Shown here: positions 1,005-7,487 of the stretch, in pieces
Position numbering within the stretch: the first letter of the stretch is position 1
How the letters are laid out: the number at the start of each line of letters is the position of its first letter
IMG/VR virus record: IMGVR_UViG_2684622580_000009
Reading direction: 5' to 3' (one strand)
DNA: 10,930 bases
Source: a virus
Lineage: Duplodnaviria; Heunggongvirae; Uroviricota; Caudoviricetes
Program-made: the position numbers and the translations under genes
Notes under the pieces: generated by a model
What the model was told of the DNA's origin: nothing
Databases searched by the model: none
Seen by the model: only the letters and a program-made list of their open reading frames with translations

Positions 1005-1580
1005 CTACGGCAGTGCTGGCCATTCAATATCCTGTGCAGTTGACGTATCAACACGGTTCAGCAACACCCGATACTTTTTCCAGGCTTCCAGCAATGAGGT
1101 TTCTTCCTCCGTTGCGATTTCCAGATCTACAGCATCCTGAAGTGGCGCAATATGCTCACTGGCTACCTGCATCAGGCTGTTTTTTGTTTCTTCCGCCTCT
1201 CGGATCCGGAACAGTTTTTCTGCTTCTGCATCTTTCACCCAGGCTGTGCCGTTCCACTTCTGAAACTCCCCTTCCGGCGATAACCAGGTAACATTTTCCG
1301 GTAACGGACCGAGTTCAGAAATAAATAACGCGTCCCCTGACGCTACGTCATAAACCGTTTTACCCCGATGGTCTTCAACGAGATGCCACGATGCCTTATC
1401 ACTGTTGAAAACAGCCACAAAGCCAGCAGGAATATCTGGTGGTGCAATATCGGTACTGTTTGCTGGCAGACCTGTATGAGGCGGAATATATGCGTCACCT
1501 TCACCAATAAATTCATTAGTTCCGGCCAGCAGATTATAAATTTTTATGGTCCGTGGTTGTTCACTCATTCTGAATGCCAT
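1005..1580 (-). CDS. tfa: Tail fibre assembly protein (lambda Tfa-like), 191 aa
   Basis: Near-identical over its length to recalled lambda Tfa ([54 protein letters not shown]...); sits immediately downstream of the stf-derived ORF with a start/stop overlap at 1580. Confidence 0.9.
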
Positions 1581-5389: not shown

Positions 5390-5816
5390 AAGCTGTGTGA
5401 CGAAGTAACCACTCTTAACAGCATAACCAATTTTTTACGTACGTAAACCACTAAATGATATTTGCGAGAATGCTACCGAGTATTGAAAACACCACTACAA
5501 ATACATAAGCAAATCTCAACAAATAACCAACAAATTATTTCCAGTGTTATTTTTAGCTTATTTAAATTGAACCTTCAAATTATAGAGCGCTTATAAATAA
5601 CAGCCGTTAATATAAATTGGCTAATAGATTTATTTTTATTCAGCAAAGAGCTATGAATAGGATTCGATAGAAAAAAGTTCAGATAAAAATAGAGATCTAC
5701 TTCACAAATCAAACGAGAAACCAAAACTTACATCTTGAAATAATCACATTGATTAGATGAATATTTATCGCGCAGTGACATCATTTTTTAATAATAGTTC
5801 AAAAAAAGGGCTCACG

Positions 5817-6914
5817 ATGAAAAAATTAACAGTGGCAATTTCTGCTGTAGCTGCATCAGTACTGATGGCGATGTCTGCTCAGGCAGCTGAAATTTATAAT
5901 AAAGACAGTAACAAGCTGGATCTGTACGGGAAAGTTAATGCTAAGCACTACTTCTCCTCTAATGATGCAGATGATGGTGATACTACTTATGCCCGTCTTG
6001 GCTTCAAAGGTGAAACCCAAATCAACGATCAACTGACTGGTTTCGGTCAGTGGGAATATGAATTCAAAGGCAACCGCGCTGAATCTCAAGGTTCCTCCAA
6101 AGACAAAACCCGTCTTGCATTTGCAGGCCTGAAATTCGGTGACTACGGCTCAATCGATTACGGCCGTAACTACGGTGTAGCATACGACATCGGTGCGTGG
6201 ACTGACGTTCTGCCAGAATTCGGTGGCGATACCTGGACCCAAACAGATGTGTTCATGACTGGTCGCACCACTGGTGTTGCAACCTATCGTAACAACGACT
6301 TCTTTGGTCTGGTTGATGGTCTGAACTTTGCTGCTCAGTACCAAGGCAAAAACGATCGTAGCGATTTCGATAACTACACTGAAGGTAACGGTGATGGCTT
6401 CGGTTTCTCTGCTACCTATGAATACGAAGGATTCGGTATCGGTGCAACTTATGCGAAATCTGATCGTACCGACACTCAAGTTAATGCAGGGAAAGTTCTT
6501 CCTGAAGTATTTGCTTCCGGTAAAAATGCAGAAGTTTGGGCCGCAGGTCTGAAATATGACGCTAACAACATTTACCTGGCCACTACCTATTCTGAAACCC
6601 AGAATATGACTGTATTTGCTGATCACTTCGTTGCTAATAAAGCCCAAAACTTCGAAGCTGTTGCACAATATCAGTTCGATTTCGGTCTGCGTCCGTCCGT
6701 TGCTTACCTGCAATCTAAAGGTAAGGATCTTGGAGTATGGGGCGATCAGGACTTAGTCAAATATGTTGATGTAGGTGCAACCTATTACTTCAACAAAAAT
6801 ATGTCTACTTTCGTTGATTACAAAATCAACCTGCTTGACAAAAATGACTTCACTAAAGCACTCGGTGTAAGCACTGATGACATCGTTGCTGTAGGTCTGG
6901 TTTACCAGTTCTAA
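5817..6914 (+). CDS. nmpC: Outer-membrane general porin, NmpC/OmpD/Lc-type, intact, 365 aa precursor
   Basis: Signal peptide [23 protein letters not shown] then [17 protein letters not shown]..., C-terminal VGLVYQF beta-barrel terminal motif with terminal Phe; matches recalled NmpC. The ATG at 5817 is preferred to the upstream ATG at 5757 because it starts the signal peptide and has a purine-rich stretch upstream. It sits opposite to the late genes between Q and S, as in DLP12/PA-2. Confidence 0.9.
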
Positions 6915-6920
6915 TCTGAT

Positions 6921-6964
6921 TACGAAAAAGATATGTTGCGGGAGGCGTTGCCTCCCCAACATAT
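6921..6964 (-). terminator. Long imperfect palindrome (about 15-bp arms, one bulge) followed on the minus strand by CTTTTT; candidate tR'-like terminator of a short Q-proximal transcript
   Basis: ATATGTTGCGGGAGGC-GTT-GCCTCCCCAACATAT (6931-6964); the minus-strand read is followed by a T5 run (6925-6930). It lies about 180 nt downstream of the Q stop, similar in scale to the lambda pR'-tR' 6S unit. Confidence 0.45.
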
Positions 6965-7103
6965 AAGTGGCTCCCTCAAGCCACTTCCTTTAGAAGCACA
7001 ACCTTGCTTCTAACTATATAAACCTTCTGTTATATATTACCCTTTATTTTTGGGGGCGTCTCAACGCCCCATTTTTAATAATTTTTAGTAAACAATTGGC
7101 ATA
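6965..7103 (-). promoter_or_regulatory. Candidate late promoter (pR'-like) and Q-utilisation region immediately downstream of the Q gene
   Basis: Position only: in lambdoid phages pR' and qut lie directly downstream of Q. The segment is AT-rich and holds three further hairpins (6965-6986, 6992-7010, 7053-7070). No -10/-35 pair could be assigned confidently by eye. Confidence 0.3.
7053..7086 (+). terminator. Rho-independent terminator on the plus strand downstream of the porin gene
   Basis: GGGGCGT-ctca-ACGCCCC stem-loop (7053-7070) followed by ATTTTTAATAATTTTT. Confidence 0.6.
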
Positions 7104-7487
7104 TTAATTAGAGTTATTAACAACGATATCCATCTCTAACCGGATATCTAATGCCATTAACATCCCTTCAATTATGCCCTCAGCCTTCTGTAACCTTTTC
7201 CCGATATAACCATCAGAGCAGCAATGCTTACCTGCCAGTGACATGAATGTCATACCGACTACATAATAATCTACTAATAAATCGTGCAAATCGCTGTTGT
7301 TCTTTTTCAGACGGGCCATGCACCCGCAAATGATCATCGCGTCATCGTCACAACATTGCGGGCGAGATTTTACTTTTGAAGGAATTAATCCCTTAAAACC
7401 GGCGGCAATGGACGACCAGGTCACATCTTCATGATTATTAGCCGCCCACGCTCCCCAACGTTCAAGAACCATCTGAATATCACGCAT
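7104..7487 (-). CDS. quuD: Late-gene antiterminator Q (phage 82 / QuuD-type), 127 aa
   Basis: [60 protein letters not shown]... matches recalled QuuD/Q82, including the Cys-rich zinc-binding region. The ORF-track start at 7502 adds 5 upstream codons; the ATG at 7487 is preferred. Confidence 0.88.

Follow-up and report, generated by a model that had tools for sequence, protein, structure and literature searches.

What lies between the antiterminator gene Q and a convergent porin gene in a lambdoid prophage: the late promoter with a short leader RNA, or the boundary of an inserted gene? We examined this question in a 10,930-nucleotide (nt) stretch of a Caudoviricetes virus (IMG/VR record IMGVR_UViG_2684622580_000009), hereafter called the window, which represents the late-control segment of a DLP12/PA-2-type lambdoid prophage in reverse orientation. 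A block of four hairpins (H1 to H4) at positions 6915-7103 separates the end of a porin open reading frame (ORF; nmpC/lc, + strand, ending at 6914) from that of Q (7487-7104, - strand), and the original prediction was right that these two genes converge. It also suggested that the block resembles the pR'-qut-tR' unit that gives rise to a 6S-like RNA, or that it could act as convergent terminators. We judge with moderate confidence that the block bounds the nmpC/lc porin moron on its Q side and would work there as a two-way insulator composed of a staggered pair of opposed intrinsic terminators. From the sequence, the late promoter, Q-loading site and tR' are predicted to be at 5449-5365 (- strand), not in the block.

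Anatomy and conservation of the hairpin block

The four hairpins are present at, or directly next to, the positions originally given for them. H1 (6931-6964) is a 34-nt imperfect palindrome with a stem of 8 + 7 base pairs (bp), a one-base bulge and a 3-nt loop. It is followed by H2 (6965-6986; 8 bp stem, 6-nt loop) and H3 (9 bp stem, 6-nt loop), the latter occupying 6990-7013 rather than 6992-7010; a U-run follows H2 and H3 on neither strand. H4 and its tail span 7053-7086 on the + strand (GGGGCGU-CUCA-ACGCCCC, then AUUUUUAAUAAUUUUU), with the hairpin itself at 7053-7070 (7 bp, of which 6 are G-C, and a 4-nt loop), and the distance from the end of H4 or its tail to the Q stop codon is 18-33 nt. 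A fifth, AU-only hairpin at 7015-7036 is weak (-1.3 kcal; 7 of 200 shuffled sequences were equally stable) and probably not significant.

The block as a whole is far more structured than expected from its composition. The + strand of the 189-nt block folds with -65.1 kcal/mol, compared to -35.1±4.0 for shuffled sequences (z -7.4; none of 200 as good), and the - strand with -65.5 kcal/mol (shuffles about -42; z -5.9). Each of H1-H4 also beats its own shuffles (z -3.1 to -6.7), with energies (+/- strand, kcal) of -22.2/-20.8 for H1, -10.4/-12.4 for H2 and -9.6/-9.7 for H3, and -12.5 for H4.

The sequences that follow the two outermost hairpins are as originally described. On the - strand H1 is followed by CTTTTTCG, i.e., C+U5 (6930-6925), while on the + strand H4 is followed by ATTTTTAATAATTTTT, in which A+U5 precedes AAUAAUUUUU. 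H4(+) has the features of an intrinsic terminator (GC-rich stem, loop of 3-8 nt, U-run within 0-2 nt of the stem), looks canonical, and is the sole site in the block flagged by a terminator scan. Judged by the same features, H1(-) has a strong (-20.8 kcal) but bulged stem and a tail of C+U5 or C+U4. Among the block hairpins, the top terminator score belongs to H4 on the + strand and to H1 on the - strand. The flanks on the respective opposite strands are U-poor, with an A-rich sequence after H4 on the - strand and no U-run after H1 on the + strand.

Conservation was assessed across 145 full-length copies of the block, which comprise 52 distinct sequences. Variable positions are less frequent in stems than among unpaired nucleotides (8/92 vs. 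21/97; Fisher p = 0.016), and the coding ends on either side are likewise more variable than the stems (p = 0.007). In 141 of the copies no change is seen in the H4 stem, even as all four loop positions vary (CTCA, TTCC, TTCA, TGCA), with the energy of -12.5 kcal retained. H1 occurs in four major variants, all between -20.8 and -22.2 kcal, in which the loop and the bulge vary and the outer arms are invariant; in the C6956G variant the bulge moves and the stem stays intact. The tail of H1(-) is CTTTTTCG in 98 copies and CTTTTAGT in the other 47. The inner hairpins are less constant: the top two pairs of H2 are opened, without compensation, in 9 of the 52 variants, and H3 shows one-sided changes only, among them A6994G, which gives a G-U pair on the + strand. 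One-sided changes in the hairpins favour neither strand consistently. Taken together, the pattern supports selection acting on the stems.

The porin cassette and its Q-side boundary

The block is the Q-side end of a porin cassette (moron) that extends over about 5471-7128 and includes the porin promoter region, nmpC/lc, the hairpin block and a new tail for Q. The empty site is preserved in an E. coli/S. flexneri locus (L164), which is collinear with the window up to the RLEMD codons of Q (...GATGGA, 7129) and again from TTCTCGCAAATAT (5470); where L164 has ~36 nt, the window has ~1658 bp, and only 29 nt separate Q from the late promoter (pR') in L164. After RLEMD, the cassette supplies Q with seven codons and a stop (about 7128-7104).

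The same proximity is found more widely. Among 30 relatives of Q in reference genomes, the pR' motif begins between -1 and +30 nt from the Q stop codon in 15 loci, and pR' is displaced from Q only in nmpC carriers and in two Citrobacter loci that have other inserts. The empty site and the 15 loci with Q-adjacent pR' identify the cassette as an insertion that must coexist with transcription of the Q strand. In the 150 IMG/VR loci with the block, the order essD-pR'-porin-block-Q is constant apart from contig ends and insertions of IS1 or IS5, and in all 130 loci with enough flanking sequence a match to the pR' profile lies ~1.6 kilobases (kb) from the block on the Q strand. We also considered whether the block is naturally joined to another gene; this was rejected, as all partial matches are contig ends or IS1/IS5 insertions.

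The cassette is common and its boundary has gone unmarked. Of 5426 complete E. coli genomes, 2516 carry the block in 1-3 copies each (median 1), nearly all of them at full length, and the carriers include E. coli Nissle 1917, LF82 and O104:H4. Phage PA-2 (J02580), the DLP12-derived part of 434B, phage Kati and E. coli K-12 have the block with 100% identity. The hairpins are unannotated in the PA-2, 434B, Kati and K-12 records examined.

Several observations concern the junction itself. The Q proteins of this subgroup share a common sequence up to ...RLEMD and then continue with unrelated tails of 5-24 residues (7104-7128 in the window compared to L164, L003 and L004), so that the mosaic joint falls within the Q reading frame; in Stx phages, the -35 element of pR' sits inside the 3' end of Q. 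A Citrobacter braakii locus (L170, 3390-5720) has 2.3 kb of other cargo at the Q/pR' junction, all of it antisense to Q and consisting of a 345-amino acid (aa) membrane-like ORF and two small ORFs. This suggests that the Q/pR' junction is a recurrent insertion site. In phage ev087 (L003, 2879-3010), a segment homologous to the tR'/StxS 3' region of Stx2 phages directly follows Q and is succeeded by a convergent lipocalin gene (blc); no match to the pR' profile was found within 2.5 kb downstream of Q in ev087.

If the block is an insulator, porin transcripts (+ strand) would pass H1-H3, of which H1 would open the run of stem-loops in the porin 3' untranslated region, and end at H4 and its U-run (about 7075-7080), and porin transcription, which has its own promoter, would thereby be kept from running antisense into Q. 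Transcripts of the Q strand would pass H4 and then H3-H2 and end at H1 + CUUUUU (about 6925), a stop that would spare the porin gene antisense transcription. H2 and H3 would be accessory stem-loops of the 3' untranslated regions (UTRs), possibly mRNA-stabilising elements, processing sites or passengers. Because each terminator adjoins the other gene, the 3' UTRs of porin and Q would overlap by ~150 nt. Termination at H4 and H1, at whatever efficiency, is inferred from the sequence.

Several points weigh against this assignment. The layout is unusual, with ~140 nt between the porin stop codon and the porin terminator and with each terminator beside the other gene, and a pure terminator model does not account for H2 and H3. 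Scores of the d'Aubenton-Carafa type are low (H4(+), -5.2; H1(-), -14.9) compared to +24 for the tR' of Stx phages as control; neither H4(+) nor H1(-) has a U at the start of its tail, and the U-runs are short, with only four U after H1(-) in one third of the copies. The earlier proposal of convergent terminators is supported as far as H4(+) and H1(-) have the anatomy of opposed intrinsic terminators. No two-sided compensatory changes occur in the hairpins, whose copies show low divergence (93-100% identity), and stem conservation could in part be due to the youth of the cassette. Finally, the Term-seq supplement of PMC7815308 has no entries for quuD, nmpC or essD.

Published work on the same spacer is compatible with termination there. 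In K-12, a strong terminator placed in the nmpC/quuD spacer left ins5CB-dependent transposition of IS5 unchanged, while Ptet at this position altered transposition (PMC11677980). In the authors' interpretation, transcripts that come from the quuD side stop short of crossing the spacer, probably via intrinsic terminators (PMC11677980). These results fit termination in the spacer and a silent spacer alike and do not separate the models.

Other explanations of the hairpins

Only H4 might be functional, as the terminator of the porin gene, with H1-H3 being passengers that came along when that gene was captured from a bacterial chromosome (for example, the terminator of a convergent neighbour together with other hairpins of the 3' flank). 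The missing U-runs of H2 and H3, their open and uncompensated pairs in some copies, the weakened U-run of H1(-) in one third of the copies, and a young cassette that moves as a single unit would all be expected of passengers. We nevertheless consider this explanation unlikely, since the stems vary less than the loops, spacers and neighbouring coding sequence, and the energy of H1 is kept in its four major variants, including the one in which C6956G shifts the bulge.

Another explanation, also improbable in our estimation, is that the block is a regulatory RNA locus, in the form of overlapping 3' UTRs cut by RNase III, an Hfq-type small RNA (sRNA), or an independent pair of convergent sRNAs. 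In the first of these forms, porin expression in lysogens could be coupled to the level of Q mRNA. The staggered terminators maximise the overlap of sense and antisense transcripts (~150 nt), and the block is conserved at least as well as the flanking coding ends. The element UUUAUUUUU-H4-AUUUUU is similar to an Hfq-binding module of the kind reported by Ishikawa (2012). There are precedents in convergent sRNAs at moron sites (PMC4104026) and in StxS, which derives from pR'-tR' (PMC7547250). The block resembles the AgvB/AsxR and convergent moron-site sRNAs (PMC4104026) in its position on the 3' side of a lambdoid moron coding sequence and in having convergent, hairpin-terminated units; it differs in that its junction is upstream, not downstream, of pR'. 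A by-eye comparison found no visible resemblance in sequence to AgvB/AsxR, no Rfam family match overlaps the block even at E ≤ 5, and no convincing conserved promoter was found inside it.

A narrower version holds that the staggered order is itself functional, either through the ~150 nt of complementary 3' UTRs or through an Hfq-binding sRNA that derives from the porin 3' UTR and ends at H4. We think it quite unlikely. If the overlap were functional, porin transcription in the lysogen would lower residual Q mRNA by RNase III cleavage or transcriptional interference and so tighten lysogeny; under either the overlap or the sRNA scheme, H2 and H3 would serve RNA processing or stability. Regulatory overlap of this kind would tie control of the lytic switch to a lysogenic-conversion gene, and nothing here shows such a tie.

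Two further ideas are very improbable. One is that H1 is bound as DNA by a dimeric protein, as its length, near-perfect symmetry and invariant outer arms could indicate; its GC-rich core, 3-nt loop, tolerated bulge and adjacent U-run are typical features of RNA hairpins, and there is no known candidate for such a protein. The other is that the hairpins are dispersed repeats of the REP (repetitive extragenic palindromic) type, a possibility that the original prediction had itself raised. This REP-type idea is refuted: carrier genomes have the block in 1-3 places, always at this prophage locus, and dispersed partial copies are absent from E. coli genomes (blastn, word size 11, E ≤ 0.01).

The late promoter beside essD

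The late-control unit is just upstream of the holin gene essD (5244-5029, - strand), at 5449-5365 (- strand) and outside the coordinates covered by the original prediction. It consists of a -35 element (TTTACG, 5447-5442), a 16-nt spacer, a -10 element (TATGCT, 5425-5420), a putative transcription start at ~A5413 and a terminator hairpin with U-run (5389-5367) that was called by the terminator scan; the leader RNA from this start is predicted to be ~50 nt long. The promoter has a position weight matrix (PWM) score of 9.43 (>99.9th percentile of window positions), and the region shares 84% column identity with the pR' of Stx1 and Stx2 phages. A pR' profile built from 17 regions of 7 genera, with the window left out (E. 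coli/Shigella, Trabulsiella, Citrobacter, Pantoea, Xenorhabdus, Providencia, and the Stx1 and Stx2 phages), has a single match in the window, at 5449-5365 (-) (nhmmer, E = 7.8e-21). Features conserved in pR' of the Q21/Q933W family are a TTTACG-NN-CGTAAA palindrome over the -35, the -10, a AAGAGTGG start region and a hairpin terminator.

The proposal that pR', the Q-loading site and tR' are in the block, and that they yield a 6S-like leader of 100-190 nt that Q would lengthen, antisense to the porin gene, as far as the lysis genes, has to be set against this unit. The block does lie directly downstream of Q and is similar in size to the lambda unit; its - strand has TTGAGA-19-TAATAT with a -10-like TATAGT downstream, and H1 + U5 would be a possible terminator. 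The family pR' is absent from the block, however, as the profile finds nothing in 6915-7103 at E ≤ 10 with filters off (--max), and where the motif abuts the Q stop codon in 15 relatives, here the cassette is inserted between the two. A consensus scan of the block found no sigma-70 promoter on the Q strand. The top promoter-like site by PWM on this strand is the TTGAGA-19-TAATAT sequence (7064-7034; score 8.66, near the 99.9th percentile of the window), whose candidate -35 sits in the H4 loop, is separated from the -10 by a 19-bp spacer and reads TGGAAA in 36 of the 145 copies. Downstream of H1(-) is the antisense strand of the 1.1-kb porin gene, not the lysis genes, and essD has a promoter and terminator of its own upstream. 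We consider a late leader in the block highly improbable; the late promoter and its predicted short leader RNA are at 5449-5365 (-).

The identity of Q points the same way. The original prediction suggested a comparison with phage 82, on the premise of a Q of that type; the Q encoded here (127 aa) belongs to PF06530, the Q21/Q933W family (defined in bioRxiv 10.1101/651190), and not to the Q82 family. It is of the QuuD type, shares 79-82% identity with Q of Stx phages and matches the Q21 structures 6JNX and 6P18 distantly (PDB Q21 match, E = 7.6e-8). The Q of phage 82 (X92588) has 229 aa and falls into PF06323, and its similarity to the Q encoded here was undetectable (BLASTP, E = 8.6). The pR'/t82 region of phage 82 was therefore rejected as a comparator, its Q being of an unrelated family.

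A MAFFT alignment had suggested homology of the block to the segment downstream of Q in ev087 and to the StxS region; this was rejected as chance by local alignment. The block is no more similar to the leaders of Stx phages or ev087 than shuffled sequence is (scores of 19-22 vs. a null of 16.5-17.5±2.3, with 21-85 of 500 shuffles as good), while the local alignment between ev087 and Stx2 is real (score 43 vs. a null maximum of 34).

In Stx phages the start of pR' was mapped by differential RNA sequencing (dRNA-seq) to 258 nt upstream of the 3' end of tR', with an RNase E cut at +173 (PMC7547250). Both distances agree on A2957 of an Stx phage locus (L004) as the start, 7 nt after the -10 (TATCAT) and at the end of Q. 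Transcription in Stx phages apparently passes the homologous first hairpin (U7) and continues to a second tR', 258 nt from the start (PMC7547250); this looks odd for a canonical hairpin.

Two elements within the late-control unit deserve mention. A 14-bp perfect palindrome, TTTACG(TA/AT)CGTAAA, lies over the -35 (5434-5447) and is invariant in 18 pR' regions from 7 genera except that its centre switches between TA and AT (10 vs. 8 sequences), always with symmetry kept. It is a candidate for the Q-binding element (QBE) of the Q933W/QuuD subgroup; the QBE of Q21 is described as a direct repeat, unlike this palindrome. A small stem, GUGG..UCAC (5412-5397, - strand), occupies +2 to +17 of the predicted leader. 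A U-G pair is conserved in this stem, and another pair covaries (GC in exchange with AU) when Escherichia/Citrobacter are compared with Xenorhabdus/Providencia. The stem may form a nascent-RNA hairpin at the sigma-dependent pause site; the GenBank record of PA-2 calls this stretch a CRP site (L002, 1067-1087).

Among the other features of the window, the porin ORF (5757-6914; Pfam Porin_1, 1.2e-156) is intact and corresponds to the annotated lc of PA-2 (J02580). It begins with an ATG at 5757 (385 aa), while the PA-2 lc coding sequence starts at the equivalent of 5817 (365 aa); the Pfam porin match starts at residue 49 of the 385-aa ORF. A 69-aa ORF at 6753-6962 (- strand), antisense to the porin 3' end and with its start codon within H1, is ORF1 in PA-2 (J02580), a pseudo or hypothetical gene in 434B and unannotated in RefSeq K-12; it is probably spurious. 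Elsewhere in the window, at 1039-1237 (- strand), there is an Rfam match to IS009 (RF02111) over the full family length (226.7 bits, E = 3e-56).

Comparison with known systems and significance

The term moron denotes a gene that has been inserted together with a promoter and terminator of its own (Juhala et al. 2000, cited in PMC4104026). The cassette is like other lambdoid morons in that an autonomous gene lies between genes that are adjacent in relatives, with a candidate factor-independent terminator at its 3' end, and its identity to the PA-2 and DLP12-derived 434B sequences makes it the lc/nmpC moron of PA-2/DLP12. It differs from lambdoid morons in its place between Q and pR' rather than downstream of pR', in being antisense to phage transcripts, in replacing the C-terminal tail of Q, and in a 3' end made up of two putative opposed, staggered terminators and two extra stem-loops. 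With the pR'-qut-tR' units of lambda 6S and Stx StxS the block shares its position next to Q and an end in a hairpin and U-run on the Q strand; it differs from them in having no match to the family pR' profile and in a promoter-like site that lacks conservation.

Overlapping or bidirectional terminators between convergent bacterial genes are familiar from the SEnd-seq literature. The block is similar to these in that 3' ends would fall inside one short spacer with hairpins readable on both strands, and differs in that it would comprise two separate unidirectional terminators, not one shared bidirectional hairpin. In kind, then, the arrangement is already known, both as a moron with its own stop signals and as convergent terminators, and the cassette has been known since the work on PA-2 and DLP12. 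The putative terminator pair is unannotated in the records examined, and its staggered layout is slightly unusual. The hairpin block is an ordinary feature.

For annotation, the Q-nmpC spacer of DLP12/PA-2-type prophages, present in nearly half of complete E. coli genomes, should not be taken for a 6S region or the late promoter; it is beside essD that the Q-responsive promoter and its predicted leader lie. For the biology of these phages, a porin cassette with its own putative stop signals, placed exactly at the Q/pR' junction, shows that a convergent gene can come between Q and the site on which Q acts, as long as the junction is insulated.

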